NCBI GenBank assembly: GCA_963841435.1
Contig: CAWJCS010000002.1
Location: 640,001-704,000, forward strand
Origin: an uncultured delta proteobacterium
Lineage (GTDB): Bacteria > Myxococcota_A > Polyangia > Polyangiales > Polyangiaceae
Length of the DNA: 64,000 nt
Direction of reading: 5' to 3'
Shown here: piece by piece, positions 5,503 to 37,882 of the stretch
Position numbering within the stretch: the first letter of the stretch is position 1
How the letters are laid out: every line of letters begins with the position of its first letter
Notes under the pieces: model-generated
What the model saw: the letters and a program-made list of their open reading frames with translations, nothing else
Told to the model about the DNA's origin: nothing
Database searches by the model: none
Translations under genes and position numbers: made by a program

Positions 5503-5643
5503 GTGCTGGGTCTCAGCTTCGGCGAGCTGTTCCTGCTGACGTTCATCGTCGGCACGATTCTCTCTGCTCGCTACTGGCCGCGCCTCGGCGAGTGGGTTGT
5601 GCGCCGCATCGCTCGTTCGACCGGCGACAGCGACCCTGAGTGA
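5503..5643 (+). CDS. small TatA/TatB-like single-pass membrane protein (46 aa; not in the ORF track)
   Basis: GTG start after GGGGGAG; MLGLSFGELFLLTFIVGTILSARYWPRLGEWVVRRIARSTGDSDPE* has the GLSFGEL-TM-PxLG amphipathic pattern of TatA/B. Confidence 0.6.
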   Translation: MLGLSFGELFLLTFIVGTILSARYWPRLGEWVVRRIARSTGDSDPE

Positions 5644-5727
5644 CCCTCTCCGCACGCGCGCAAAGCAGCGGCGCGGCATTCCGGGTGGAGAAACGCGCGG
5701 CCCCACGGTACGCTGCCGTCACCCGAG

Positions 5728-8184
5728 GTGGCAAGCTCCGATCCGAAGTCTGCCCCCGATAGCTCGCCAAGCTCGCAGGGTGCGCTCATCTTCATGAGCG
5801 ACGCCTCGGCGGAGGCAGAGCGCCTGAGTTCCGCGCTCCGCACGCGCGGGCACTGGGTGGTCGACGTGCCGCTCGGGCTGCTCGCGGGACGCGTGGCGGT
5901 GCAGCGCCCGGCCGTCGTGATCTGTGACGCCGACGCCCCGGGCACCCTGGAGACCTTGACGCGCGTCCAGATCGCGGCAGGCGAGCGTACGATCAACGTG
6001 CTGCTCATCGCTGAGCGGCTCGAATCGGTGCCCCAGGGCCGCCGCGAGCTCGAGACGCTCGCGAGCGCGCTGTTCACGCGGCCCGTCGAGCCAGAGCTTT
6101 TGATCGAGAAGGTCGAACAGATCATGGGGCCGAGCGGGTCGCGGCCCTCCGCGAGCGGTGCGTCGAGCGCCGGAGGGCGACCACCCGTGCTGGTCGCCGC
6201 AACCCGCCGCCCGTATCGCTACGAGGGCTCGAGGCCCGGCAGCCGCGGTCCATTGAGTGGCGCGCCGCCTTCCGCCGGAGCGCCGTCTTCTCCGCGGGCG
6301 TCGGGGGGAGGCTCGGCACCTCCCGGCGCGTCGCCCTCGTCGGCGCCGTCGTCGCCGCCGGCGGGAGCCCCAGCGTCCGGGCGACCCTCGAGCTCCCCGC
6401 CCGGAGTCGGGCCGCGAGGGGGATCGGTCGTGCCGCAAGCGATCGGGGCCGTCCCGCACGCGCGCCTGAGCCCCGAGCTCGAAGCGTTGCTCGGCCGCGC
6501 CGAGCAACGGGTGCGCAGCACGGCCGGCATGCCGGTCGTCGCCGAGCGGCTCTCGCCCGAGGCTGAGGTCGAGGCCGTGCTGCCGGCGGAGCTGCTCGCC
6601 GTCCTCGACGAGCCGCTCCAGGACGACGAGGACGACGAGGATGACAGCGTCCCAGGCACGGCGGGAGGCTCGGAAGGCGGCTCGCGCGGCACGCGCGGCA
6701 CCCCTGACGCGGGCACGGCCGCGGGCTCGCGTGGTGTTGCCCGGACCGAGACGACCTCGAGCCGGTCTCGCCACGTGCCCGTCGAGCCCCCACCCCCTGA
6801 GCCGCCGGAGGACAGCGCCGCCTTCGGTCAGGAAGCGCCCACGGCACCGCCTCGCGGCGGGCCGGCGCCGCCCAGCATGCTTTCGACGACGGCGCTCGAA
6901 GGGCTCGAGCATCCGCTCGAATCGCGACCGAGCCGTCCGGCGCCGACGGCACCCGGCGGAGTGATCGAGAGCCTTCCGCCCGTCGAGGTGCCTTCCACCC
7001 GCCCGCCGCGCTCCGCGCATACCGAACGCCGGCCCGAGCCGGACGGGAGGCCCGAGCCTTCGCCGCCGCGCTCGTCCGAGGTGCCGCTGCTCGCTCGCCC
7101 GCCATCGGACCCGCCCTCGATGGTGAACCGCTTGCCGGACGTGCCCGCCGTCCTCGGAGCCGGCGATGGCGTGAGAGCGCTGGCACGCTCGATCGCGTCC
7201 CGCTTCACGGGCGCCGTCGCGTTCGAGGATCCCGCGGGGATCCGCCGCGTCGTGTTCCGCGACGGCGACTTCGTCACGGCGGCGTCCAGCGCCGAGGGGG
7301 AGACACTCGTCGCGTTCCTCGCGCAGCGCGGCGATTTGTCGCCGGACGTCGTGCAGAAGGTGGCGCGGCGGCTGCCGCCGTTCGGCCGTCACGCGGGCGC
7401 GGCGCTCGTGGCTCAGGGGCACCTGCGCCAGGACGAGCTCTGGAGCGTGCTCCGCGCTCACGCGGAATGGTTGCTCGGCCGCGTTGCCGCGCTCGAGCGC
7501 GGCGGGGCGAGCCTCGAGCAGGACGTGCCGCAGCGCTTGCAAGCCGAGCCGGGCGTGTTCGGAGGCGCGACGGGCGCGGAGGTGCTCGTGGAGATGGCCC
7601 GGCGCGTGCTCGCCCCGGCCGACGCCGTCGTGCGGCTCGGTGGGCGCGAGGCTCGGCTCACGGCGGGCGGCGTGCGCGCGCTGCTCGCCGAGTGCGCGCT
7701 GCCCGACGCCGAGGTCTCGTTCGTGCACCAGGCGGACGGCGCAACCGTCGGGGAGCTCCTAGCCCGCGCCGGCAGCGACGATTTCGCGCCGGTCGTGCTT
7801 TGCCTCGTCGAGCTCGGCGTGCTGAAGACCGAGGGCGCGCTCCGGCGTGTTCCCGCGGACGCCGCGCGCGGTCCGGGCGAGTGGGATTCGCTCGATACCG
7901 ACGCCGTGCGCGCGCGCATCGCGTCGCGGCTCTCGCTCGTCGAGGAGGGCGACTACTTCGCCGTGCTCGGCGTGAGCCGCGACGCCACGAGCTATGATCT
8001 GCGTCGCGCGTATCACTCCATGCGGAAAGCGTTCGACCCGGGCGCCGTGCTCACCGCGGCGACGGTCGACCTGCGCAGCGACGTCGAGTCGATCCTCGAA
8101 GTGCTCGACGAGGCGTACGATATCCTGCGCGATCCGGTGCGGCGCGAGCGCTACCGGCGCGCGCTCGAAGCCGTGCCCCGGTAG
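5728..8184 (+). CDS. multidomain protein: pseudo-receiver, Pro/Ser-rich linker, DUF4388-like domain, degenerate C-terminal J-domain
   Basis: VVICDAD receiver-like N-terminus; RFTGAVAF...RRVVFRDGDFV; DYFAVLGVSRDA...EAYDILRDPVRRERY. Confidence 0.8.
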   Translation: MASSDPKSAPDSSPSSQGALIFMSDASAEAERLSSALRTRGHWVVDVPLGLLAGRVAVQRPAVVICDADAPGTLETLTRVQIAAGERTINVLLIAERLESVPQGRRELETLASALFTRPVEPELLIEKVEQIMGPSGSRPSASGASSAGGRPPVLVAATRRPYRYEGSRPGSRGPLSGAPPSAGAPSSPRASGGGSAPPGASPSSAPSSPPAGAPASGRPSSSPPGVGPRGGSVVPQAIGAVPHARLSPELEALLGRAEQRVRSTAGMPVVAERLSPEAEVEAVLPAELLAVLDEPLQDDEDDEDDSVPGTAGGSEGGSRGTRGTPDAGTAAGSRGVARTETTSSRSRHVPVEPPPPEPPEDSAAFGQEAPTAPPRGGPAPPSMLSTTALEGLEHPLESRPSRPAPTAPGGVIESLPPVEVPSTRPPRSAHTERRPEPDGRPEPSPPRSSEVPLLARPPSDPPSMVNRLPDVPAVLGAGDGVRALARSIASRFTGAVAFEDPAGIRRVVFRDGDFVTAASSAEGETLVAFLAQRGDLSPDVVQKVARRLPPFGRHAGAALVAQGHLRQDELWSVLRAHAEWLLGRVAALERGGASLEQDVPQRLQAEPGVFGGATGAEVLVEMARRVLAPADAVVRLGGREARLTAGGVRALLAECALPDAEVSFVHQADGATVGELLARAGSDDFAPVVLCLVELGVLKTEGALRRVPADAARGPGEWDSLDTDAVRARIASRLSLVEEGDYFAVLGVSRDATSYDLRRAYHSMRKAFDPGAVLTAATVDLRSDVESILEVLDEAYDILRDPVRRERYRRALEAVPR

Positions 8185-25719: not shown

Positions 25720-26958
25720 ATGGCCAAGCGCCCTCACGTTCTCGGCATGGTGCTCGCTGGCGGCGAAGGCCGGCGCCTGCACCCGCTCACGCGCGATCGC
25801 TGCAAGCCGGCCGTGCCCTTCGGTGCGAACTACCGCATCATCGATTTCGCGCTCTCGAATCTCGTGAACGGTCGCTTCCTGCGTATCGCGGTGCTCACGC
25901 AGTACAAGAGCCACAGTCTCGACCGCCACATCGCCCAGACCTGGCGCATGTCGCATCTGTTCAACAACTACGTGATGACCGTGCCCGCCCAGATGCGCCT
26001 CGGCAGGCGCTGGTTCGAGGGCTCCGCCGACGCCATCTACCAGAACCTGAATCTGATCGGCGACGAGCGGCCCGATTACATCTGCGTTTTCGGTGCCGAC
26101 CACATCTACCGCATGGATCCCGAGCAGATGGTGCAGGCGCACATCGAATCGGGAGCCGGCGTCACGGTCGCGGCGATGCGAGCCCCGCGCTCCGAGTCGT
26201 CGCGCTTCGGCGTGCTCGTGCCCGGATCGAACGGCCGCATCGCGCAGTTTCAGGAGAAGCCGGAGGTCGCCGAGGGGCTGCCGGACGATCCCGACAAGGT
26301 GTTCGTGTCGATGGGCAACTACGTGTTCAGCACGCGCGTGCTCGTCGACGCAGTCCGGACCGACGCCGAGAACAAGGACAGCGTCCACGACATGGGCGGC
26401 AACATCATCACCATGCTGGTCGAGGCGGGCATGGCCTCCGTGTACGACTTCGCGCTGAACAAGCTGCCCGGCGCCACCGAGCGTGACCGCGGGTACTGGC
26501 GCGACGTCGGCACGCTCGACAGCTACTTCGAGGCCAACATGGACCTCATCAGCGTGCACCCGATCTTCAACCTGTACAACCGCGATTGGCCGATTCACAC
26601 CGGCTTCAGTTCGCTTCCGCCTGCCAAGTTCGTGCTCGAGGAGGGCGACCGCCGCGGCGCGGCCTTCGACTCGATCATCAGCGCCGGCGTGATCGTCTCG
26701 GGTGGCACCGTGCGTCGCTCGGTGCTCTCGCCGGGAGTCTCCGTCCATTCGCGAGCGCTCGTCGAGGACTCGGTGCTTCTCGACGGGGTCGACGTGGGGC
26801 GCGACGCCATCGTGCGCCGTGCCATCGTCAACAAGAACGTGGTCATTCCGCGCGGTGCGCGCGTGGGCGTCAACGTGGACGAAGACCGGGCGCGAGGATA
26901 CACGTTCAGCGAAAACGGCATCGTCGTGCTCGGCAAGGGTGACGTGGTCAAGGCGTAG
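25720..26958 (+). CDS. glgC: glucose-1-phosphate adenylyltransferase (actinobacterial-like)
   Basis: [56 protein letters not shown]. Confidence 0.97.
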
Positions 26959-26976
26959 TCACGCCTCCGAGCCGAC

Positions 26977-28194
26977 ATGCAAAGAGAGCGCCGCCTCCAG
27001 GCCGCCATCGTCACGCGCGAGTACCCGCCCGAAATCTACGGGGGTGCGGGCGTTCACGTCGAACACCTCGTTCGCGCGCTCGCTTCCCATGTCGAGGTGC
27101 GCGTGCACTGCTTCGGCAAGCCTCGCGAGGCGCCGGAAGTGGCGGGCTGTTACGAGCCCTGGAGCGCTCTTTTGGGCTCGGAGCCCGAGCTCGCGGCGCT
27201 GCGCACGTTGTCGCTCGACCTTCTCGCAGCGCACCACCTGCGCGGCAGCGACATCGTGCACACGCACACCTGGTACGCAAACCTCGCCGGCCACCTCGCC
27301 AAGCTCCTCTACGGCGTCCCGCACGTGATGACTTCGCATAGCCTCGAGCCGCTCCGGCCCTGGAAGGTCGAGCAGCTCGGGGGCGGCTACGCGGTCTCGA
27401 GCTTCGCCGAGCGCACGGCGATCGAGAGTGCCGACGCCGTGATCGCCGTCTCGCAGGCCATGAAGCGCGACATCCTCGTGGCGTACCCCCTCGTTCCGAA
27501 CGAGCGCGTGCACGTGATCTACAACGGCATCGATCCGGACGAATACAAGCCCGACGGTGGTAGCGAGGTGCTCGCGCGCCGCGGTGTGGACGAAAAACGG
27601 CCTTACGTCGCCTTCGTAGGGCGCGTGACACGGCAGAAGGGCATCGTGCATCTCTTGCGCGCGGCGCGCTACACGGCCCCCGGCACGGCCTTCGTGCTCT
27701 GCGTGGGAGAGGCCGACACGCCCGAGATTGGCGCCGAGTTCGAGACGCTTGCTGCCGAAATCCACCGCGAGCGCGGCGGCATCGTGCGCATCGACGGCAT
27801 GGTGGCACGCTCGGAGGTTGCCCAGATCTTGAGCCACGCGCGCGCCTTCGTGTGCCCGTCGGTGTACGAGCCATTCGGCATCGTCAACCTCGAGGCCATG
27901 GCGTGCGGCGTGCCCGTCATCGCTTCGAGCGTCGGCGGCATTCCCGAAATCGTGGTCGAGGGCGAGACGGGATTTCTCGTCGCGTTCGAGGGTGACGGCA
28001 CCGCCAAGAACGAGCCGCGCGATCCCGAGGCGTTCGCTCGTGCGCTCGCGTCGCGCATCGACGAGCTCGTGAGCGATCCCGAACGAGCGCGCCGCATGGG
28101 CGAGGCCGGGCGCACCCGCGTCGTCGAGCACTTCTCGTGGGCCGCGATCGCCAAGCGCACGGCCGAGCTCTACCGGAGCCTGGTCGGGCGCTGA
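26977..28194 (+). CDS. glgA: GT4 glycogen synthase / maltose-1-phosphate synthase (Corynebacterium/Mycobacterium GlgA/GlgM type)
   Basis: TREYPPEIYGGAGVHV, HTHTWYANLAG, HSLEPLRPWKVEQLGGGY, FVGRVTRQKG, CPSVYEPFGIVNLEAMAC. Confidence 0.93.
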   Translation: MQRERRLQAAIVTREYPPEIYGGAGVHVEHLVRALASHVEVRVHCFGKPREAPEVAGCYEPWSALLGSEPELAALRTLSLDLLAAHHLRGSDIVHTHTWYANLAGHLAKLLYGVPHVMTSHSLEPLRPWKVEQLGGGYAVSSFAERTAIESADAVIAVSQAMKRDILVAYPLVPNERVHVIYNGIDPDEYKPDGGSEVLARRGVDEKRPYVAFVGRVTRQKGIVHLLRAARYTAPGTAFVLCVGEADTPEIGAEFETLAAEIHRERGGIVRIDGMVARSEVAQILSHARAFVCPSVYEPFGIVNLEAMACGVPVIASSVGGIPEIVVEGETGFLVAFEGDGTAKNEPRDPEAFARALASRIDELVSDPERARRMGEAGRTRVVEHFSWAAIAKRTAELYRSLVGR

Positions 28195-28231
28195 CCCGAG
28201 GGGCCGGACGCCGCCCCTCACGCTCGAGCGC

Positions 28232-29572
28232 TCACGGTCGGAGTCGCAACACGAAGCGTTGCGGCGCGAGGCTTCGCGGCTCGGTCGCGAGATCGACGCT
28301 CGGGTCGATGAGGCGCTGGCTCGGTCGCCCGTTGAGGGCCGCCCAGGCGTCGGCATAGACGCTCACGTGGGTGTGCCCGCGAGCGCGGTAGCGCTCGGCG
28401 ACGTACAGAGCGTACTCGTGAATCATGTCCGGTTGGATCGACATCATCGCGTATTGCATCGGCGTGAGCTCGTCGTCGGGGAGGGCGCGGAGGCGCCGTG
28501 GGGGCGTGTCGGCGACCACGGTGAGCTCGACGTGCCCCGTCTTCTCGTTCAGCATCACGCGCCACGCAAAGCGAAAGCCCTCCTCGGTCCAGCTCGCCGC
28601 TCCGGGATAGAAAAGGGAGCGAGCGGGCAACACGAGCTGCGCGGCGAGCAGGATCGCGAGCGTGACTCGTTCGACACCGCGAACGACCCGTGGCTCGAGC
28701 CGCGCGGCGGGCTCTGGCCCCGCTCGCCAGGAGAAACGCAGCCAGCCGGGCTCGAAGAAGACCGTACAGGTCAGGACCATCAACCAGGAAAACACGCCGA
28801 TCGGGAACAGCAGCCCGACGAGCCCGTGAAACGCGACGGCGACGCCGAACGCCGCCGCCCGCGAGCGCCGAAAGAGGAGGAGCGGCACGATCGCGAGATC
28901 GAAGGCCACGCCGGCAAAGCTCGCCGCGTACGCCGTGGCGGGCGACGCGACGAGCGGGCCGACGAGCGGGAGCTCCGCGAAGCGACCGAGCCAGAGCCCG
29001 AGCGGCTGGGCGGAAAACAGCCAGTCTGGGTTGAGCTTGGCGACCCCCGCGTAAAAATACACGATGAAAAGCTGCGCGCGAAGCGCGTGGTACGCGAACG
29101 CCGGCACCTTACGCTCGTGGCCCCGGCGCCGTGCGTCGAGGGAAAAGGCCGCCCCAGCGTCGAGGATCACGAAGTAGAGCGCGACGAGACTCGCGAGATA
29201 GTAGTGGTTGAGGTACGTCGCCTTGTCGAAGAGCTCGGCGAGCGTGAACGTGACGAAGAACGTGAACGCCGCGAGCCGCGTCCACGCGCCGAGCATCAGC
29301 GCGACCGCAGCGAGCGCCATCAGCGAAAAGTGCACGGCGAGGCCAAAGGCTGGCCAGGGCCGCACCCATTCGAAGCCGAGATAGGTAAAGTGAAAGGAAG
29401 GCGCGAGGTAGAGCTCGGAAATCCAGCCCTTCGCCACGAATCGCAGGGTCGAGAGCAGCATCAGCGCGCCGAAGCCGATGCGGAACGCGGCGAGTCCCGC
29501 GGCATCGACGGGTCGCGCGAGAGCGGCGAGGGCGCGGCGAGCCAGGCGACGGCCGTGTTCAGTCGCCGTCAT
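28232..29572 (-). CDS. HTTM domain protein, vitamin K-dependent gamma-carboxylase homolog
   Basis: LAAFRIGFG, DKATYLNHYYL, YFYAGVAKLNPDWL, IGVFSWLM, WTEEGFRFAWRVML, QPDMI, LNGRPSQRLIDPSVDLA. Confidence 0.92.
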   Translation of the reverse strand: MTATEHGRRLARRALAALARPVDAAGLAAFRIGFGALMLLSTLRFVAKGWISELYLAPSFHFTYLGFEWVRPWPAFGLAVHFSLMALAAVALMLGAWTRLAAFTFFVTFTLAELFDKATYLNHYYLASLVALYFVILDAGAAFSLDARRRGHERKVPAFAYHALRAQLFIVYFYAGVAKLNPDWLFSAQPLGLWLGRFAELPLVGPLVASPATAYAASFAGVAFDLAIVPLLLFRRSRAAAFGVAVAFHGLVGLLFPIGVFSWLMVLTCTVFFEPGWLRFSWRAGPEPAARLEPRVVRGVERVTLAILLAAQLVLPARSLFYPGAASWTEEGFRFAWRVMLNEKTGHVELTVVADTPPRRLRALPDDELTPMQYAMMSIQPDMIHEYALYVAERYRARGHTHVSVYADAWAALNGRPSQRLIDPSVDLATEPRSLAPQRFVLRLRP

Positions 29573-30635
29573 TTTGGCTGAAGCCCACGCTCAGTGCGAG
29601 CGCGTTCACCATCTCGATCTGCACGAGCCGACCGAGCGCCGCGAGCGCGTCGACGGCGCGGCTGACGTCGCGCGGGCTCTCGCTCACGGCGCGAGTGAGC
29701 GGCTCCGGCACGGCCTCGACCGCCGCGCGTGCCGCGGTGAGTCGCTCGGTCATCACCCCGTCGAAATCGTGCCCGCGCGAGCGCAAGTACCGGCCTAGCC
29801 CGCTGCCCGCAGGGTCGCCGAAGTAAACGAGCGAGACGCCGTCGAGCGCGTCGCCGAGATCCGCGAGCGAGCGGCCGCTGAAGCGGGACTCGGCGGCGTC
29901 CGGGGCGGCGCTGCCCTCGGGTGCCTGTCCCAGTGGCTTTTCCAGTCGATCGATGCGCATCGCTTCGAGCGAGACGCCGAGCTCCTGCAAGACCGCCGAG
30001 ACGGCCAGCGTGAGCGACGCGTAGCGCGAGCTCGTGCGACCGGCGCCGACGAGCTCACCGAGATAGTCGTCGCCCGCCGGGTCCCAGGCCGCACGCAGCT
30101 CCGTGGCGCGGACCCGGAGGTCCTCCGTGAGCGCGAGCAGGTATTCGCAGCGTCGCGGAGTGTCCGAGAGCTCGGCGACGAGGTCCGCGTTCGGCTCGTA
30201 GAGCAGATACTCGATGGCGGGCATGCCCTTCTCGGCGGCGCCGAGCGTCGTCGGCCCCTCGTCGTCGAGCGTCAACGTGGAGGCGAGCACGCCTTCGATG
30301 GCGGCCGGGCGTGCCGGCCAGAAGTCGATCTTCGGGCCCAGCCTGAGCGGCTCGTCCGAGTAGGGGCCGAAGGCGAAAGCGTCCCCGCGCTTGAGCGGCG
30401 CGCGTGCCTCCCACCATGCACCGCGCGCGGACTCGAGCGAGCCGTCATCGGGCATCTCGCAGAGCGCCTCGGTCTCGTCGCGGAGCACCTCGGTGCGCGC
30501 TTCGAAATCCCGATAAACCGGCAGCACGACGCCGCCACCGAACGATTCGAGCCACGCGCGGCGCGCGTCCGGCACCTCGTACGGACTGCACGCACCGGCC
30601 ACGAAAAAGAGGGCGAGCGGTAGCGAGCGCCTCAC
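29559..30635 (-). CDS. imelysin (peptidase M75) family lipoprotein
   Basis: AGAC lipobox, ARGAW, IDFWP, KGMPAIEYLL, ESRFSGRS, C-terminal GFSQNDGD. Confidence 0.9.
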   Translation of the reverse strand: MRRSLPLALFFVAGACSPYEVPDARRAWLESFGGGVVLPVYRDFEARTEVLRDETEALCEMPDDGSLESARGAWWEARAPLKRGDAFAFGPYSDEPLRLGPKIDFWPARPAAIEGVLASTLTLDDEGPTTLGAAEKGMPAIEYLLYEPNADLVAELSDTPRRCEYLLALTEDLRVRATELRAAWDPAGDDYLGELVGAGRTSSRYASLTLAVSAVLQELGVSLEAMRIDRLEKPLGQAPEGSAAPDAAESRFSGRSLADLGDALDGVSLVYFGDPAGSGLGRYLRSRGHDFDGVMTERLTAARAAVEAVPEPLTRAVSESPRDVSRAVDALAALGRLVQIEMVNALALSVGFSQNDGD

Positions 30636-32036
30636 AGTGACTCCACGAAGACGACGAGCGCCGAGCGCTCCTCCAACGTCATGCTGCGGAACGCCTCGCG
30701 CGAGCTAGCGCCCTCACCGTCGTGCCACAGAACGGCTTCGGCGACGCCGCGAGCGCGCCCGTCGTGCAATAGGCGGTCGTGGCCGTTGACGGCAGGGACG
30801 CGGCCGACGCCCCAGAGCGGCGGTGTGCGCCACTCGCTCCCACCGGCGCCGAAGCTCGGGCGACCGTCGGAAAGCCCTTCGCCGAGGTCGTGCAGCAGAA
30901 GATCGGTGTACGGGAAGATCACCTGATGGGAGAGCTCGGGTAGATCCTCGACGTTGCCGGTCTCGTGTCGCGGGACGTGGCAGCGATCGCAGCCCGCGCT
31001 CGAAAAGAGCGCCTGCCCGCGCCGCACGGGCGCCTGGGCCGCGTCCTGTCGCGCCGGTACGGCGAGCAGCCGTGCGTAGATCTCCACGCGGTCGAGGATG
31101 TCGGGACCGACCTCGGGGTCGCCGCCCGTCACGCGTGCGGCGCATTCGCGCTCGGCGGCCGTGCAGTCCTGCTCGACGAAGAGCGGTGTCGTGAGCCCGA
31201 GGTCGCCGAGGAAGGCGCCCGCGGCTTGCTGGCGGACGGAAGGCTGCTCCGCTTTCCAGCCGAAGCGCCCCGGCTCCTCACGGCCGAGCGCCATGTCCCA
31301 CACGCGATTGAGGCGCCCCGAGATGCCGTCCTCGTCGGCATCGTCGGGATCCTCGAGCGCGTCGAGCCGCTCGACCGGTATCGCCTCGAGCAGGCCGAGG
31401 CCGATCATCGCGGGCGCCACGCGCGGTGACACGACGAGCTCTGGGTCGAGCTCGCCGTAGCCGGGCTCGTCGATGCCGTACGTCGGGGCGAGCAGCGTGT
31501 ACGGCTCGCCGTCGGCGAACGTTCCGGCCACCTCCTCGACCTCGAGTCGCGGTGTCCCCTCGACGGGCACGTCGTCGATCGCGAACGGCTGGAGCTGTCC
31601 GCCGTACGTCGGCTCCGGCAGGGGCTCGCCGTGGGGGCCGCGCCCGGGGACGCCGAGTCGCAGGAGCAAGCCGAGGAACGCCTCGTGCGGATTCGAGCGG
31701 CGGCCGGCCGCGGCCATCCTTGAAGTGGCACGCCGCGCACGAGCGTGCGTTGAAGAGTGGTCCGAGGCCGTCGCGCCCTGCCGTGCTCGAAGGCGCCTGC
31801 ACCCAGGGCTGGTTGAAGTACGCATTGCCCGCGAAAAAGAGCGGCTCGTGCTCGTCGCTCAGATTCGCCGCGGGCAGCGTGAAAGCGTTCGAGCCGCCGA
31901 GCAGCGTGTTGGTCGTGGCGCCGCCCGGCATGCGTTCCTCGAGCGCGGGTGACGTGTCCGATGGAGCTTGCGTCGAGCCGGAGCAGGCGAGCGTCGCGAG
32001 ACCCAGCGCGAGCGATAGCCGCAGAGCTGAGCTCAT
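30632..32036 (-). CDS. di-haem oxidoreductase family (DHOR/DUF1111) lipoprotein (apparent +1 frameshift at ~31692)
   Basis: LAC lipobox, DGLGPLFNARSCAACH, PTYGGQLQ, GLGLLEAIP, GRFGWKA, CDRCH, PYTDLLLHD, WRTPPLWG, LHDGRAR. The two track ORFs join on removing one base. Confidence 0.92.
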
Positions 32037-33199
32037 GGCTCGGGGGGGGCGTCGAGCCCGAGCGACCGAAAAACGTCCTGGAGAGCGTCGGCCTGCTCGC
32101 GGAGCGCGTCGGCGAGGGCCTGGACTCGCTCGCGCCCCTCGGGGTTGTCGAAGCGGATCTCGCGATCGAAGGGCGGCACGATGGCGTTCGCCCGCGCGAG
32201 GCTCTCGTCGATGAGCGCGCCGAGGCGGTCGGCGAGCGCGGGGTCACGCGCGGCGACGAGGTCGCGGATGCCGGTTCCGCTCGCGACCTGACCGCCCGGG
32301 CTCGTGTACCTGCCGTGGTACACGTTCCAGACGCCCTGCACGTCCTGGATCATGTCGCGGTGCGTGTTGTCGCTGAAGCAGGAGTGCTCGTCTTCCTGGT
32401 TTCCCGAGTCGAGTGCCGTCTGCACGCGCTCGCCCCCGGTTTCGAAGCCGGAAAGCACGATCATGCCCGTCAGGACGCGGCGCAGCGCTTCCTTCGGCGC
32501 CACGCTCTCGAGCTCGACGCGATAGTCGGCGGCGGGGGCCCAGGCAGCGACGAGACCCGCGAGGTTTTCGACGAGCAGCTCGGAAACCGTCGCCAGGTAG
32601 AGCGCCCGTCGATCCTGGTGTTCGGCGGTGCGCGAGCCCTCGAGCGCGTAGTCGGTGGCGGGGCGGTCGCCTGGGCCGTCCTCGTCGTGATCCTGGCCCC
32701 ACAGCAAAAACTCGACGGCATGGTAGCCCGTCGCGATGTTCTCTTCGCCGCCCTTTTCGTTGAGCGCCGACAGCGACTCGGCGCTGATCGTCACCCGTGG
32801 ATCGTTGACGATGCCGGCGTCGTCGTCGCCCTCGACGTAGTCGATGTACGACTCGTCGAGCGGCCAGGCGTTCATGAGCCCCTCCGGGTCGTCGATCGGG
32901 CCGTCGTAGAAGCGGTAGACCTCGGTCTGCAGGTACGGCTCGCGCGCGTCCTTCCAAGCTTTTCTCGCCGCGTTCAGGCGCGCTTCGTTCGGCGACCGAA
33001 GAAACTCCGCGATGGTCTCTTTTAGCAGCGTCGCCCCGTCGAGCGAGTCCGCGTAGCTCGCTTCGACGATGCGGGCATAGTTGGAAATCGCGGCCGCGGT
33101 GGCCTTCGCTTCCGTCGCTGCCGCGTCGTTTCCGTCGCCGCATCCGGCGGCCGCCGGCAGCGCCATGGCGAGAAAGAGTGCGCCGAGTGGACGTTTCAA
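32033..33199 (-). CDS. iron-regulated imelysin/IrpA family lipoprotein
   Basis: GGAGG plus TTG start, AGC lipobox, TEVYRFYDGPID, NAWPLDESYIDY, TGYHAVEFLLWGQD, QEDEHSCFSDNT. Confidence 0.93.
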   Translation of the reverse strand: MKRPLGALFLAMALPAAAGCGDGNDAAATEAKATAAAISNYARIVEASYADSLDGATLLKETIAEFLRSPNEARLNAARKAWKDAREPYLQTEVYRFYDGPIDDPEGLMNAWPLDESYIDYVEGDDDAGIVNDPRVTISAESLSALNEKGGEENIATGYHAVEFLLWGQDHDEDGPGDRPATDYALEGSRTAEHQDRRALYLATVSELLVENLAGLVAAWAPAADYRVELESVAPKEALRRVLTGMIVLSGFETGGERVQTALDSGNQEDEHSCFSDNTHRDMIQDVQGVWNVYHGRYTSPGGQVASGTGIRDLVAARDPALADRLGALIDESLARANAIVPPFDREIRFDNPEGRERVQALADALREQADALQDVFRSLGLDAPPEP

Positions 33200-33215
33200 G
33201 GGTGCCTCCGGTGCG

Positions 33216-33545
33216 CTAGAGCGCTTGGTTTTGCCCCTCGGAGGCCGCCATCAGGTAGCGCACGACGAGCTCCTCCTCGCGCTCGTCGAGGCCTGCGGGC
33301 TTTGCCATCTCGCGCACGAGCCCCGGCCATCTTTCGGCGCGGAACGCCGACGGCTCGAAGGGCCGATGGCAGCGCCCGCAGTGCGAGAGCAGGATGTGCC
33401 GCCCCGCTTCGAGTGACTCGCGCGAGGAGCCGGGGAAGCGCGCTGCCGCGATCCTGACGTCGTTCGCGGTGACGGGGTGGAACGGCCCCGCGCACGCGCC
33501 CACGACGAGCGCTCCGACGAAGAGCCAGCCGAGCGCGCGCGTCAC
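33216..33545 (-). CDS. small monohaem cytochrome c lipoprotein
   Basis: GTG overlapping the upstream TGA, VGAC lipobox, CGRCH haem motif, distal W..LVREM. Confidence 0.8.
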   Translation of the reverse strand: MTRALGWLFVGALVVGACAGPFHPVTANDVRIAAARFPGSSRESLEAGRHILLSHCGRCHRPFEPSAFRAERWPGLVREMAKPAGLDEREEELVVRYLMAASEGQNQAL

Positions 33546-34378
33546 AGCCCGATTCCCACGATGGCGCGAAACCAGAATTTCCCCCATGGATCGCCCGCCA
33601 CCGCCGCCTTGCCGAAGTCGTCGAGCCGCGCGTACGCGCCGAGCGACAGGAAGTACTCGCCCGTCTGCAAGAGCAGCGTGGGTCCGAGATAGTGGTGCGC
33701 GCCCTCCTCCTCGCCAGCTTCTTCGCTTTCGAAGTTGCCGTGCACCCAGTACTCGATGCCGGGTGACACGCGCGGCGAGGCCTCGAAGCTCGCACCGAGC
33801 GTGGGGTTATACAGGTATTCCCAGCGTTTCTCGGCGAGCTTGTACTCCTGCTCGACCCAGAGGTTCGTGACGACCGTCACGGGGCCGAGCTGCTTGCTCA
33901 GAAGCACTTTCTCCTCGAGCTCGATCTCGTCGTAGAGCTCGGCGACCTCGACGTAGGCTCCCACGTTGACGGGCCACTCGCCGGCATCGGCGAAGCGGTA
34001 GCGCAAGCGCTGCTTGATGCCGTCGAGCGTCAGCCCGGGCTCGTCGGCGCTCGCCGCCTGCTGGTACGCGAAGTACCACCCGAGCTCCAGCGAATCGGTG
34101 ATGCCGAGCTCGATCTCCGATTGCATCTCGAAGCGCAGGGTCGGAACGCTCTCGGTGCCGCCCGCAAGCTCGCGCTCGGCGCGCGACGGAACAACGTCGA
34201 CGTACTGCTCGAGCTCGAGGTGCCCCGCGGGGAGCGTGACGTGCGGGTACGAAAACGGCAGCGGGTGAGGCGTCGCTCGGGCGACGCCGCTCGAGGCGAG
34301 CCCAAAAGCGCCCCCGAAGGCGGCCGCGAGCGCGTGGCGGCGCGTGGCAAAGAAAAGACGGGCGAAGCGGTCGAGCAC
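33542..34378 (-). CDS. putative outer-membrane beta-barrel protein (first gene of the Fur-box operon)
   Basis: Leader with TRRHAL...VARA, amphipathic beta-strand pattern, C-terminal FWFRAIVGIGL; start chosen downstream of the promoter. Confidence 0.7.
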   Translation of the reverse strand: MLDRFARLFFATRRHALAAAFGGAFGLASSGVARATPHPLPFSYPHVTLPAGHLELEQYVDVVPSRAERELAGGTESVPTLRFEMQSEIELGITDSLELGWYFAYQQAASADEPGLTLDGIKQRLRYRFADAGEWPVNVGAYVEVAELYDEIELEEKVLLSKQLGPVTVVTNLWVEQEYKLAEKRWEYLYNPTLGASFEASPRVSPGIEYWVHGNFESEEAGEEEGAHHYLGPTLLLQTGEYFLSLGAYARLDDFGKAAVAGDPWGKFWFRAIVGIGL

Positions 34379-34387
34379 GATGGCTAA

Positions 34388-34416
34388 ACGATAATGAAAG
34401 TGATTTGCAATTTCAA
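34388..34416 (-). promoter_or_regulatory. sigma70 promoter of the imelysin/DHOR/HTTM operon
   Basis: Minus strand TTGAAA-N17-TATCGT, overlapped by the Fur box, 9 nt before GTG. Confidence 0.7.
34390..34408. promoter_or_regulatory. Fur box
   Basis: GATAATGAAAGTGATTTGC matches 14/19 of GATAATGATAATCATTATC; lies in a conspicuous AT-rich patch upstream of iron-related genes. Confidence 0.85.
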
Positions 34417-34540
34417 CAAGAGTTTGGTGAAAGGCACCGTGACCAATGAAAACGGGCACTTGTGAGCGAGCCAGGCGTCTCCTGCGACGCTCGGCGGACA
34501 CCGGCGTGATCGTCCCGGTCGGGCTCTGCATGGAGCGGTC

Positions 34541-35911
34541 ATGGCAAACGCCCGCTTCGCACCCGCCCTCTGCACCCGCGCCGCGGCGGCGCTCGCGCTT
34601 GTCGGCCTTTCGTGCAGCGCGGGAGCGCCCGCCACCGGGTCCGACTCGCAGTCGGGCGGCAACGGCGGCTCGTCGCTCGTGACGACGGGAGGGAGCGGCG
34701 GCACGGGCAACGTTGCCGGCCTACCAGGCTCGGGCGGCAGCGCCGGAACCGGGCTAGGCAGCGGCGGCTCGATCGTCACCGCTGGCACCGGCGGCGTCTC
34801 GGGCAGCGCCGGCGACGCCACCGAGGCATGCGAGACGGCTCAGGCCGACGCCACGCTCGTGCGCGAGCCGGTTAACATCATCGTCGTACTCGACAACTCG
34901 GGGAGTATGGCCGAGGAAATGGGGGCCGCCGAGGCGAACATCAACGTCAACTTCGCTTCGATTCTCGACCAGGAAAAGGCCGACTATCGCGTGATCCTGC
35001 TCTCCCGCCACCGCAAGGGCGAGCGCAGCGGCACGGGCGAAAGCGAGGCCAACACCTCGATCTGCGTCACCGAGCCGCTGAGCGGGCTCGCCTCCTGCCC
35101 TGCCGATGATCCGGTGTTTTCGGAGCGCTTCTTTCAGTGGGGAGGCAAAATCGAAAGCTACGACGCGCTCAATTGGATGATCGACGCGTACGATCAGCCT
35201 CCCGACAATTCACGCGCCAAGGCCCTCGCGCCGAACGGCTATCACGAGTGGCTGCGTCCCGGAGCGAAGAAGGTCATCCTCGTGATGACCGACGACGACG
35301 AGTCGAACGACGACAGCGACACTCCGCTCACGGTCGCCGACTTCCTGTCTGGGTTGACCGCCAAGGACCCCGCCGCCTTCGGCACTCCCGACGCGCCGAG
35401 CTTCGTGTTCCACAGCATCGTGGGCGTCGAGGAAAAGGCAGACCCAACGGCCGCGTACGAGCCCACGGAGCCGCTCGTCACCGAGAAATGCACGGGCAAC
35501 GGCGCCGCCATCGAGGCGACGGGTGAGACGTACCAAGAGCTCGGCATCCTCACGGGCGGGCTGCGCTTCCCGCTGTGCCAGTTCCCCGGCTACGACGCGG
35601 TGTTCCGCGCCATTGCGGAAAACGTCATCGTCCAGAGCAACGTCGCTTGCGAGTTCGACATTCCGCCGCCTCCCGCGGGCACGATGCTCGACCTCGATAA
35701 GGTTGCCGTGCGGCAGACGTCGCAGACCGGAGCCGAGTCGCAGTTCTTGCAGGCGCCGACCCCGGCGGACTGCCAGGCGGACGCTTTCTACATCGATCGC
35801 ACGGCGAACCAGGTCCACCTCTGCCCCGAGGCCTGCGAGTCCGTGCGCGCCGAACCGCTCGCGAAGGTCGAGGTGCTGTTCACCTGCATGAGCACGCTGA
35901 TCGTGAAGTAG
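34541..35911 (+). CDS. vWA-domain lipoprotein (myxobacterial type)
   Basis: LSC lipobox, Gly/Ser linker, MIDAS DNSGSM, C-terminal HLCPEAC module. Confidence 0.85.
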   Translation: MANARFAPALCTRAAAALALVGLSCSAGAPATGSDSQSGGNGGSSLVTTGGSGGTGNVAGLPGSGGSAGTGLGSGGSIVTAGTGGVSGSAGDATEACETAQADATLVREPVNIIVVLDNSGSMAEEMGAAEANINVNFASILDQEKADYRVILLSRHRKGERSGTGESEANTSICVTEPLSGLASCPADDPVFSERFFQWGGKIESYDALNWMIDAYDQPPDNSRAKALAPNGYHEWLRPGAKKVILVMTDDDESNDDSDTPLTVADFLSGLTAKDPAAFGTPDAPSFVFHSIVGVEEKADPTAAYEPTEPLVTEKCTGNGAAIEATGETYQELGILTGGLRFPLCQFPGYDAVFRAIAENVIVQSNVACEFDIPPPPAGTMLDLDKVAVRQTSQTGAESQFLQAPTPADCQADAFYIDRTANQVHLCPEACESVRAEPLAKVEVLFTCMSTLIVK

Positions 35912-36052: not shown

Positions 36053-37882
36053 ATGTGCGGCATCGTCGGGTACGTCGGTCCTCGGGTGGCAGCGCCCGTC
36101 CTGCTCGAGGGGCTGAAGCGGCTCGAGTACCGGGGCTACGACTCGGCCGGCCTCGCCATTCACACGGCCAGGGGTGTCGAGGTCGCGCGCAGCGTCGGCA
36201 AGCTCGACAACCTCTCGCGCGCTCTCGGCGGCAGGAAGCTCGACGGCACGGTGGGCGTTGCTCACACGCGCTGGGCGACGCACGGCCAGCCGAGCGAATC
36301 GAACACGCATCCACACGTCAGCGGTGACGTCGCCGTGGTGCACAACGGCATCATCGAGAATCACGTCGCCTTGCGGCGCGAGCTCGAGGCCGAAGGCGTC
36401 CACATCGCGAGCGACACCGATACCGAGATCGTCGCGCACCTCGTGCGGCGCGAGCTCGATGCCGGACGACTGCTCTTCGATGCGGTGCGGGCCGCGCTTT
36501 CGCAGGTGCACGGCGCGTACGCGCTCGCCGTGCTGTCGGCGCGGCAACCGGATCGCATCATCGTGGCCAAGAGCGGCTCGCCGCTCGTCGTGGGCCTCGG
36601 GGACGGCGAGACGCTGTGCGCGAGCGACATGCCGGCGCTGCTCGCCCACACGCGCGACGTGCTGTTCCTCGAGGACGGCGAGCTCGCCGAGCTCACGACG
36701 GCGGGCGCGCGCGTCGAGACGCTCACCGGTACGCCCGTCACGCGCCCGACGCGCCGCGTCGACTGGAGCCCCGCGGAGGTCGAGAGGGCTGGATACCGCC
36801 ACTTCATGCTCAAGGAGATCTTCGAGCAGCCGCGGGCCGTCGAGGACACCCTGCGCGGTCGGGTTCGCGTCGCTGCCGGCGACATCGAGGACGCCGAGAT
36901 GGGTCTCGATCCACGTGCGCTGCGCGGCATCGAGCGCGTGTGCTTCGTCGGGTGCGGCACGAGCTACCATGCGTCGATCGCGGGGCGCTACTGGGTCGAG
37001 GAAATCGCGCGCCTGCCCGCGCAGGTGGAGCTCGCGAGCGAGGTCAGGAGCCGCTCGCCCGTGTTTTCGGAGCGCGATCTCGTGGTCGCCGTGAGCCAAT
37101 CGGGCGAAACGGCGGACACGCTGGCCGCCGTACAGCTGGCGCGCGACGCGGGGGCGTGCGTGCTCGCGATCGCGAACGTCGCCGGCGGTGCGATCCCGCT
37201 CGCGGCAGACGGCACGCTCTACACGCGAGCCGGACCGGAGGTGAGCCTCCCCTCGACCAAGTCATTTACCGCGGAGCTTGCAGCGCTGCTCTTGCTCTCA
37301 CTCTACCTTGCCAACCGGCGCGGCGTGCTCGACGAACGGGGCAGGGGCGAGGCGCTTCGGGCCCTGCTCGGCGTGCCCGCGGCGATGCGTCGCACGCTCG
37401 AGCGCTCCGACGAGGTCTTCGAGGTCGCGCGCCGCTTCCAGCACGCACGAAACGTGCTGTTCCTCGGGCGCGGCTACGGCTATCCCATCGCGCTCGAAGG
37501 CGCGCTCAAGCTCAAGGAGGTGAGCTACGTGCACGCCGAGGGCTACGCGGCCGCCGAGCTGCGGCATGGCCCGATGGCGCTCATCGACGACCAGACGCCC
37601 GTCGTGATGGTGATACCGCGTGATCGGCACTACGAAAGGACGCTGGCCAACCTGCAGGACGTGCGCGCGCGCGGTGCTCACGTGATTGCCGTCGCGAGCG
37701 ACGGCGACGAGATCGTGGCGTCCCTCGCGGAGCACGTCGTCAAGATCCCCGAGGTGCCGGAGCTCGTGCAGCCCCTGCTCGCCGCGATCCCGCTTCAGCT
37801 CCTTGCCTACTACGTCGCCGACATCAGGGGCACGGACATCGACCGCCCAAGGAACCTCTCCAAGGTGGTCGGTGCCTTGTGA
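36053..37882 (+). CDS. glmS: glutamine--fructose-6-phosphate aminotransferase (divergent)
   Basis: MCGIVG, LEYRGYDSAG, HTRWATHG, VHNGIIEN, SQSGETADT, EGALKLKE; C-terminal tail PRNLSKVVGAL. Confidence 0.93.
   Translation: MCGIVGYVGPRVAAPVLLEGLKRLEYRGYDSAGLAIHTARGVEVARSVGKLDNLSRALGGRKLDGTVGVAHTRWATHGQPSESNTHPHVSGDVAVVHNGIIENHVALRRELEAEGVHIASDTDTEIVAHLVRRELDAGRLLFDAVRAALSQVHGAYALAVLSARQPDRIIVAKSGSPLVVGLGDGETLCASDMPALLAHTRDVLFLEDGELAELTTAGARVETLTGTPVTRPTRRVDWSPAEVERAGYRHFMLKEIFEQPRAVEDTLRGRVRVAAGDIEDAEMGLDPRALRGIERVCFVGCGTSYHASIAGRYWVEEIARLPAQVELASEVRSRSPVFSERDLVVAVSQSGETADTLAAVQLARDAGACVLAIANVAGGAIPLAADGTLYTRAGPEVSLPSTKSFTAELAALLLLSLYLANRRGVLDERGRGEALRALLGVPAAMRRTLERSDEVFEVARRFQHARNVLFLGRGYGYPIALEGALKLKEVSYVHAEGYAAAELRHGPMALIDDQTPVVMVIPRDRHYERTLANLQDVRARGAHVIAVASDGDEIVASLAEHVVKIPEVPELVQPLLAAIPLQLLAYYVADIRGTDIDRPRNLSKVVGAL

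Follow-up and report, generated by a model that had tools for sequence, protein, structure and literature searches.

The window analysed here, a 64,000-nucleotide stretch of contig CAWJCS010000002.1 from an uncultured delta proteobacterium, carries on its minus strand a run of six co-oriented genes (28232-34378), identified from open reading frames (ORFs) and domain calls. The last two encode an imelysin lipoprotein of the IPPA type and an HTTM membrane protein resembling human vitamin K-dependent gamma-carboxylase (GGCX). We consider it rather probable that this operon is a Fur-repressed iron-acquisition module, induced by iron starvation, with a complex of an imelysin and a menaquinone-dependent enzyme at its centre. 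Judging from gene order in related genomes, we take the conserved core to be an IPPA-type imelysin lipoprotein directly followed by a GGCX-like HTTM protein; this near-obligate pairing of an imelysin with a catalytically conserved enzyme homolog is probably physical, as a modelled complex suggests. The features of the locus, in coordinates of the whole window, are as follows.

33542-34378, minus strand: predicted outer-membrane beta-barrel, 278 aa, GTG start (AlphaFold2 model and Foldseek search)
33216-33545/33587, minus strand: small mono-haem cytochrome c lipoprotein with CGRCH motif and lipobox (DHC, 3e-4; TorC C-terminus, 8e-8)
32033-33199, minus strand: IrpA-type imelysin lipoprotein, GYHAVE (Peptidase_M75, PF09375, 7.4e-77)
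30632-32036, minus strand: di-haem DHOR with CAACH and CDRCH, frameshifted (Pfam DHOR)
29559-30635, minus strand: IPPA-type imelysin lipoprotein, GxxxxE (Peptidase_M75, PF09375, 8.8e-44)
28232-29572, minus strand: GGCX-like HTTM protein, 446 aa (HTTM, PF05090, 2.5e-74; VKGC_lumenal, PF22777, 8.9e-43)
34394-34410, minus strand: delta-type Fur (dFUR) box TTGCAAATCACTTTCAT, 17 bp, matching 14 of the 16 specified positions of WTGAAAATNATTTTCAW
34388-34416, minus strand: sigma-70-like promoter, TTGAAA (34416-34411), 17-nt spacer, TATCGT (34393-34388)

The genomic neighborhoods of HTTM genes were surveyed in two sets of genomes. Set 1 was drawn from one-per-species genomes, in which 589 of 600 pattern matches were confirmed as HTTM relatives (that is, at least 589 such proteins); the best 80, mostly from Bacteroidota with some from Balneolaceae and Polyangiales, were kept and their loci analysed with profile searches. 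Set 2 was an even sample of the phylum, in which 38 of 201 genomes have an HTTM ortholog (E <=1e-70); one of the 38 is the genome of the window, which leaves 37 others for comparison. Of the 75 Set 1 loci with at least 1200 nt of upstream sequence, 73 have a co-oriented imelysin gene immediately upstream (the misses are L009 and L012), and an IPPA-type imelysin is adjacent in 35 of the 36 assessable Set 2 loci, upstream in 34 and downstream in one; L136 begins at a contig end and L166 has none. The genome itself encodes six HTTM proteins and two imelysins, and since both imelysin genes sit in the operon, the five other HTTM paralogs cannot be imelysin-linked.

The remainder of the neighborhood differs between lineages. 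In Set 1 a TonB-dependent receptor (TBDR) gene is directly downstream in 72/74 loci and a DUF4856 gene upstream in 62/71, and Pfam analysis of 11 sampled loci returned the order DUF4856-imelysin-HTTM in all 11 and the downstream TBDR in ten (the exception is L014). Set 2 has an adjacent TBDR in 13/37 and DUF4856 in 10/37. An IrpA-type imelysin and DHOR accompany the pair in 18 of the 37 Set 2 loci; within 10 kb of the Set 1 genes DHOR was found in 13/57 and an IrpA-type imelysin in 14/57. The exact six-gene order of the window recurs in two of the 37 (L130, L131). The recurrent co-occurrence on which the preliminary description had made its idea depend thus holds for the second imelysin and HTTM, whereas the six-gene set as a whole is not the conserved unit, given the 18/37 of the phylum sample and 13/57 of the mainly Bacteroidota loci. 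The first gene of the Bacteroidota cassette, DUF4856 (L017:7552-8790 and others), matches the NCBIfam model for FEA1-related lipoproteins at 6e-6, below its cut-off, which hints that DUF4856 may be an iron-binding protein. One Bacteroidota contig carries two HTTM genes about 3 kb apart (L052:1289-2551 and 5578-6822), whose products are 43% and 31% identical to the query.

The HTTM protein matches human GGCX in sequence at E 2.8e-38, and as in that family its HTTM domain is followed by a VKGC lumenal domain. A structure search with its AlphaFold2 model (pLDDT 80.5) matched only GGCX, with 16 chains at E <=0.001; 15 of these have TMq values of 0.75-0.81 at 25-28% identity and one a value of 0.62, and identities overall span 22-28%. 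Residue K179 aligns with GGCX K218, and H123 with H160, which we take to be the catalytic histidine; both catalytic positions of GGCX are therefore occupied by the same residues. K179, H123, Y120 (at the position of W157), N122 and H249 are invariant in all 118 orthologs. The five paralogs in the genome keep K179 and H249, have H123 replaced in every case, and cannot be aligned in the lumenal part. In GGCX, K218 is described as the catalytic base and the propeptide exosite is placed at residues 495-513 (10.1101/2025.02.09.637231). The sequence match stops at about human residue 490, which leaves the bacterial protein without the C-terminal region and with only part of the propeptide-binding region; neither the exosite (human ~495-513) nor a substrate with a propeptide and a Glu-rich region was recognized, and the operon contains no gene for a propeptide or Gla-like protein. 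In the genome menB and menD both pass their cut-offs and two genes encode VKOR homologs; the route recognized is the classical men pathway, a search for the futalosine pathway (PF02621) having given no match. Menaquinone supply, possibly with recycling, is therefore plausible from the gene content.

The partner imelysin has the M75 fold with the GxxxxE motif (G137-M-P-A-I-E142) in place of GxHxxE, and its profile fits IPPA 3pf0 to the last residue; the other imelysin of the operon has the GxHxxE of the IrpA type (GYHAVE). In the alignment, HTTM-adjacent imelysins carry a GxxxxE(D) motif. The window's protein ends in N-D-G-D, and a terminal D-x-D-COOH is shared by all 112 HTTM-adjacent imelysins: DGD in 76 and DAD in one from Set 1, and DGD in 17, DND in 14, DSD in two, DDD in one and DAD in one from the phylum sample. 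None of the IrpA-type proteins listed ends in this way, and the one imelysin recognized in an HTTM-less barrel cluster from the same genus whose end was read (L118) terminates in PEFVEE.

Structure prediction for the HTTM protein together with imelysin-2 (residues 17-358) gave ipSAE values of 0.82, 0.85 and 0.83, the best of three controls reaching 0.00. In the calibration of the method this mark was passed by 116 of 157 solved complexes as against 2 of 215 mismatched pairs, counts that apply only roughly here, the prediction having been made with our own alignments. At least 85% of contacts are common to the runs, and the partner has pLDDT >=85. The predicted interface comprises imelysin residues 336-358, with the whole tail, and HTTM residues 118-119, 121-123, 190-200, 256-261, 339-347 and 410-418, which include the H123 loop and invariant lumenal motifs. 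The HTTM monomer model has three segments of low confidence, and two of them (118-123 and 322-342) coincide in part with this interface. The prediction supports binding of the imelysin to HTTM, and a model in which it would dock on the periplasmic face through its last helix and D-x-D-COOH tail, with the H123 loop among the contacts of the imelysin.

The operon is preceded by a site with 14/19 matches to the 19-bp E. coli-type Fur consensus (34390-34408), as the preliminary description had noted. This consensus alone was rejected as a guide: the genome has 17 sites at >=14/19, many of them GATCATC coding repeats, and because it is too unspecific the published dFUR pattern WTGAAAATNATTTTCAW was used instead, a 17-bp palindrome derived by Rodionov et al. 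from feoAB and fur promoters (PMC545781). The window's site (34410-34394) has two mismatches to it, and the 7.8 Mb genome holds only one other site with two or fewer, about 140 nt upstream of a bacterioferritin gene (G000 C4:242403; L122:4400-4424; TIGR00754, 194.5 bits). That second box sits between an 88-aa ORF without family and the bacterioferritin gene, with an ECF (extracytoplasmic function)-type sigma factor gene about 1 kb downstream. A scan of 7.78 Mb with a position weight matrix built from the sites of seven relatives, the window's own left out, ranks the window site first at 38.5 bits, the next scoring 26.4. Lower-ranking sites were uninformative: of four dFUR sites with three mismatches two lie inside ORFs and two beside a sigma-54 activator or an unannotated protein, and matrix hits 3 to 5 fall in a convergent gene end in one case and beside unannotated or unrelated genes in the others.

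A palindrome of 7-1-7 form, TGAAArT-C-AyTTTCA, was seen by eye upstream of all eight operons inspected (the window, L010, L011, L076, L112, L113, L114 and L116); it corresponds to the dFUR box. Scanning a 600-nt zone at the start of each cluster in the phylum sample gave a dFUR box (<=3 mismatches) in 17 of 33; four of the 37 loci (L136, L152, L164, L166) were omitted with their cluster start cut off, convergent or absent. Such boxes are about 30 times denser in these promoter zones (21 sites in 19.8 kb) than in the other 464 kb (16 sites), to be read with the higher A+T content of promoter DNA than of coding DNA in mind. In the window the box fills exactly the 17-nt spacer between -35 and -10 of TTGAAA-N17-TATCGT, the only sigma-70-like site in 27900-34700, where 0.2 would be expected; the overlap of box and promoter reported earlier is thereby confirmed. 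The genome has a single Fur-family gene, which scores 114.3 bits with Fur models, 80.8 with PerR and 57.5 with Zur, all below the equivalog cut-offs. For Riemerella anatipestifer, Table 4 of PMC5609570 gives four adjacent genes, RAYM_09779-09794, with the annotations TBDR, vitamin K-dependent gamma-carboxylase, imelysin lipoprotein and hypothetical protein; the -Fe/+Fe ratios lie at 2.11-3.07 and the fur-mutant/wild-type ratios at 1.36-1.93. That paper is silent on the pairing of carboxylase and imelysin. With the box at 8/8 operons, one of the two best dFUR sites of the genome in the window and a cluster of matching annotations in Riemerella, control by Fur and iron, as first proposed, is well supported by these comparisons.

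Four of the five junctions in the operon overlap: by 4 nt as GTGA (barrel/cytochrome c), ATGA and GTGA, and by 14 nt between imelysin-2 and HTTM. The fifth, between cytochrome c and imelysin-1, is a 16-nt gap with a GGAGG just before the TTG start of imelysin-1. The cytochrome c start is likely GTG 33545, which forms the GTGA with the barrel stop, ATG 33587 giving the longest ORF. From this layout the genes behind the Fur box are predicted to be translationally coupled, and since HTTM overlaps the upstream gene by 14 nt with no internal promoter-like site, its cotranscription is likely. Both the six co-oriented, mostly overlapping genes and the cotranscription of HTTM had been anticipated, as had the lack of a TBDR, FTR1 or ABC permease in the operon, which holds; Pfam and NCBIfam gave no match to an FTR1/EfeU permease among the operon proteins.

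The genes on either side are ordinary: a GT4 glycosyltransferase and a GlmS-type amidotransferase with GATase and SIS domains were recognized among the neighbors at 25720-28194 and 36053-37882, the GT4 gene being convergent on the downstream flank and outside the operon unit, and another gene there presumably encodes a GlgC-like nucleotidyltransferase. A divergent gene (34541-35911) encodes a 456-aa lipoprotein with a Gly/Ser-rich linker, which has two full-length paralogs in the genome (the best, on C4, at 54% identity) and several shorter C-terminal matches. Considered as a member of the system, it was excluded because it belongs to no family and is found beside none of the related operons.

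The first gene encodes a protein with a 35-aa signal peptide ending in ARA. Its AlphaFold2 model (pLDDT 90.6) is nearest in Foldseek to FapF, a COG4313 channel and NanC (12-strand; TM ~0.6). Pfam and NCBIfam assign it to no family, one homolog matching DUF5777 weakly (0.032), and none of the 265 proteins of its own family has a Pfam domain. The barrel gene adjoins HTTM in five genomes of the same genus: in G001, G004, G015 and G021 as imelysin-HTTM-barrel, opposite a scramblase gene, and in G012 as DHOR-imelysin-HTTM-barrel. In the first four no IrpA-type imelysin or DHOR was seen beside the three genes in the DNA fetched. A barrel paralog of 40% identity follows a DHOR-like gene, without HTTM, in three further genomes (L117, L118 and L121, from G016, G003 and G014), and in G003 and G016 an imelysin was recognized between the two. 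From these same-genus loci of the barrel and its paralog we conclude that the barrel goes with imelysin systems. At L076 the order is TBDR, a gene without identity, imelysin-1, DHOR, imelysin-2 and HTTM, and on gene order the barrel occupies the slot held by a TBDR in most other lineages. Other observations at these loci are the scramblase gene itself (PF03803, ~1e-40; L112, L113, L114 and L116, from G001, G015, G004 and G021), which is divergent from the operon; a 182-aa protein without family just before the barrel paralog of G016; and a small cytochrome c after the barrel at L119 (G024).

The DHOR gene of the window is read in two frames. Positions 7-85 and 211-499 of Pfam DHOR are matched in different frames, and tblastn with an intact homolog also gives matches in two frames. 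The N part with CAACH and the C part with CDRCH are separated by a +1/-2 shift at about 31690-31715, the switch falling between GRGRPPLE and NPHEAFLGLLLRL near 31700 in a G+C-rich run. The gene is continuous across this point in 18/18 genes of the phylum sample. Both haem motifs of the di-haem protein described earlier are thus present; the single open frame is not, and no continuous polypeptide with a signal peptide unites the two CxxCH motifs. The break could be a real pseudogene or an assembly indel. Since DHOR is frameshifted in this assembly, the earlier suggestion that the haem proteins supply redox equivalents cannot be general.

Under the iron-acquisition reading, iron starvation would relieve Fur repression of this envelope module. 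By analogy with GGCX and vitamin K hydroquinone, the HTTM protein would consume menaquinol and O2 in a reaction at the docked tail or at the metal bound to it, and the capture of iron or its transfer would depend on this reaction. An accessory EfeO/EfeB-like branch of periplasmic Fe(II)/peroxide redox chemistry may be formed by the IrpA-type imelysin, DHOR and cytochrome c, and the 12-strand barrel, in the TBDR slot, would provide passage through the outer membrane. Candidate roles of HTTM are to modify the acidic tail, to act on bound iron or to accept iron. In the most specific version HTTM would be a menaquinone-dependent protein carboxylase and the Asp residues of the D-x-D-COOH tail would be carboxylated to malonate-type iron chelators; we consider this version decidedly unlikely.

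Several observations weigh against the iron-acquisition reading. The conservation counts overstate independence because the surveyed loci are related, and three HTTM orthologs (L009, L012, L166) have no adjacent imelysin. For 16 of the 33 phylum-sample clusters the scanned zone showed no dFUR box (<=3 mismatches). In the window just 9 nt separate the -10 from the GTG start of the barrel, which means either a leaderless mRNA on GTG or an error in the promoter or start call. Simple iron repression is hard to square with a Fur box before bacterioferritin. The IPPA of Psychrobacter (3pf0), for which no HTTM link is documented, ends in TDGD; the tail was therefore rejected as an HTTM-specific marker, and it need not be an HTTM substrate. 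The last six residues of that protein are disordered in its crystal (PMC3143127). The complex is a predicted model and the enzyme activity is likewise putative. Given the frameshift, either this strain has lost a working accessory branch or the assembly contains an error.

The same facts can be read in other ways. HTTM might not be an enzyme at all, its place being that of an inner-membrane iron acceptor or permease, a counterpart of EfeU/FTR1 into which the imelysin tail carries the metal. None of the arrangements seen includes an integral inner-membrane protein other than HTTM, Xu et al. (PMC3143127) note the lack of EfeU in imelysin operons of this kind, and the D-x-D-COOH tail, which Psychrobacter IPPA also has, resembles a metal-chelating arm. 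On the other side, the residues corresponding to the GGCX catalysts (K218 and H160) are invariant in 118/118 orthologs, H123 is lost in the five paralogs that are not imelysin-linked, and the fold search returned only GGCX and no transporter; we hold this explanation to be rather unlikely.

Iron acquisition also has to be set against a role in peroxide or oxidative-stress defence, in which a PerR-like regulator would control the operon, DHOR would be a cytochrome c peroxidase served by the operon's cytochrome c as donor, and bacterioferritin would belong to the regulon. DHOR is annotated as a putative peroxidase, the second box precedes bacterioferritin, and the sole Fur-family protein reaches 80.8 bits with the PerR model; however, that protein scores higher with Fur models (114.3 bits), the box matches one derived from feoAB and fur promoters, and the Riemerella cluster of matching annotations responds to iron restriction. 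DHOR is moreover missing from the conserved core in about half of the loci, and the TBDR genes and FEA1-like DUF4856 genes nearby suggest that metal is taken up, so that we regard stress defence as very unlikely. Equally improbable in our view is that the DHOR frameshift is real and marks an operon in decay, with a module that is partly or wholly non-functional. The frameshift occurs only in the window, the genes of 18/18 relatives being continuous, yet the remaining genes show no damage, their motifs being conserved and their junctions coupled, and the G+C-rich run that holds the shift is a plausible place for an assembly indel. Loss of DHOR need not disable the core, since four same-genus genomes lack an adjacent IrpA-type imelysin and DHOR in the DNA fetched.

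Imelysin/DHOR cassettes are known to respond to iron, and we know of no role assigned to the bacterial GGCX homologs. The closest described operons are PA4370-PA4373 of Pseudomonas aeruginosa and VC1264-VC1266 of Vibrio cholerae, reported by Xu et al. 2011 (PMC3143127) as Fur-regulated imelysin-DHOR-imelysin operons; like the operon here they combine, in this order, an IrpA/ICMP-type imelysin (GxHxxE), DUF1111/DHOR and an IPPA-type imelysin (GxxxxE) with Fur control and lack EfeU. The words carboxylase and vitamin are absent from the text of that paper. The operon here differs in having a GGCX-like HTTM gene after the IPPA-type imelysin, together with the barrel and the cytochrome c. PA4373 is presumably a DUF1513 protein. 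The EfeUOB/EfeM systems similarly join a periplasmic M75 (imelysin) protein to a haem peroxidase under iron control, whereas the operon here lacks an FTR1-type permease, a cupredoxin domain and a DyP, has DHOR in place of EfeB and HTTM as membrane component. Human GGCX shares the HTTM and lumenal domains, with equivalents of K218, H160 and H287 invariant in the orthologs; the window protein, in contrast, has 446 aa versus 758, Ala for K217 and Tyr for W157, no evident propeptide Gla-type substrate and an apparently iron-regulated context.

A bacterial carboxylase of the HTTM family is MloH of malonomycin biosynthesis (Law et al. 2018, as cited in 10.64898/2026.08.19.745780). It is described there as carboxylating an aspartyl group, a precedent for Asp instead of Glu, although on a polyketide-peptide intermediate in a secondary-metabolite cluster, whereas the candidate substrate here is a protein tail in an iron operon. 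The Riemerella cluster (PMC5609570) fits the Bacteroidota form of the cassette, DUF4856-imelysin-HTTM-TBDR, a match by annotation and gene order alone, and as listed there has no barrel, cytochrome c, IrpA-type imelysin or DHOR. In our literature searches no paper was found that holds both imelysin and HTTM, none was found for DUF4856, and none describes the imelysin-HTTM pairing, the Riemerella paper listing the matching annotations. What is new is that an IPPA-type imelysin is almost always, and probably physically, paired with a catalytically conserved GGCX-like enzyme.

This locus and its relatives join two orphan problems, the imelysin cassettes and the bacterial GGCX homologs, into one testable hypothesis, and the cassette is carried by cultured, non-pathogenic flavobacteria and myxobacteria, with strains of Christiangramia, Zunongwangia, Gillisia and Polyangium (as at L031, L033, L036 and L011) as candidate carriers. 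The pairing also bears on the origin of the animal vitamin K-dependent carboxylase. Carboxylation of the imelysin's Asp tail, should it occur, would give bacteria their first case of a protein modified in a vitamin K-dependent manner and would point to metal acquisition as the original function of the carboxylase family that serves blood clotting.

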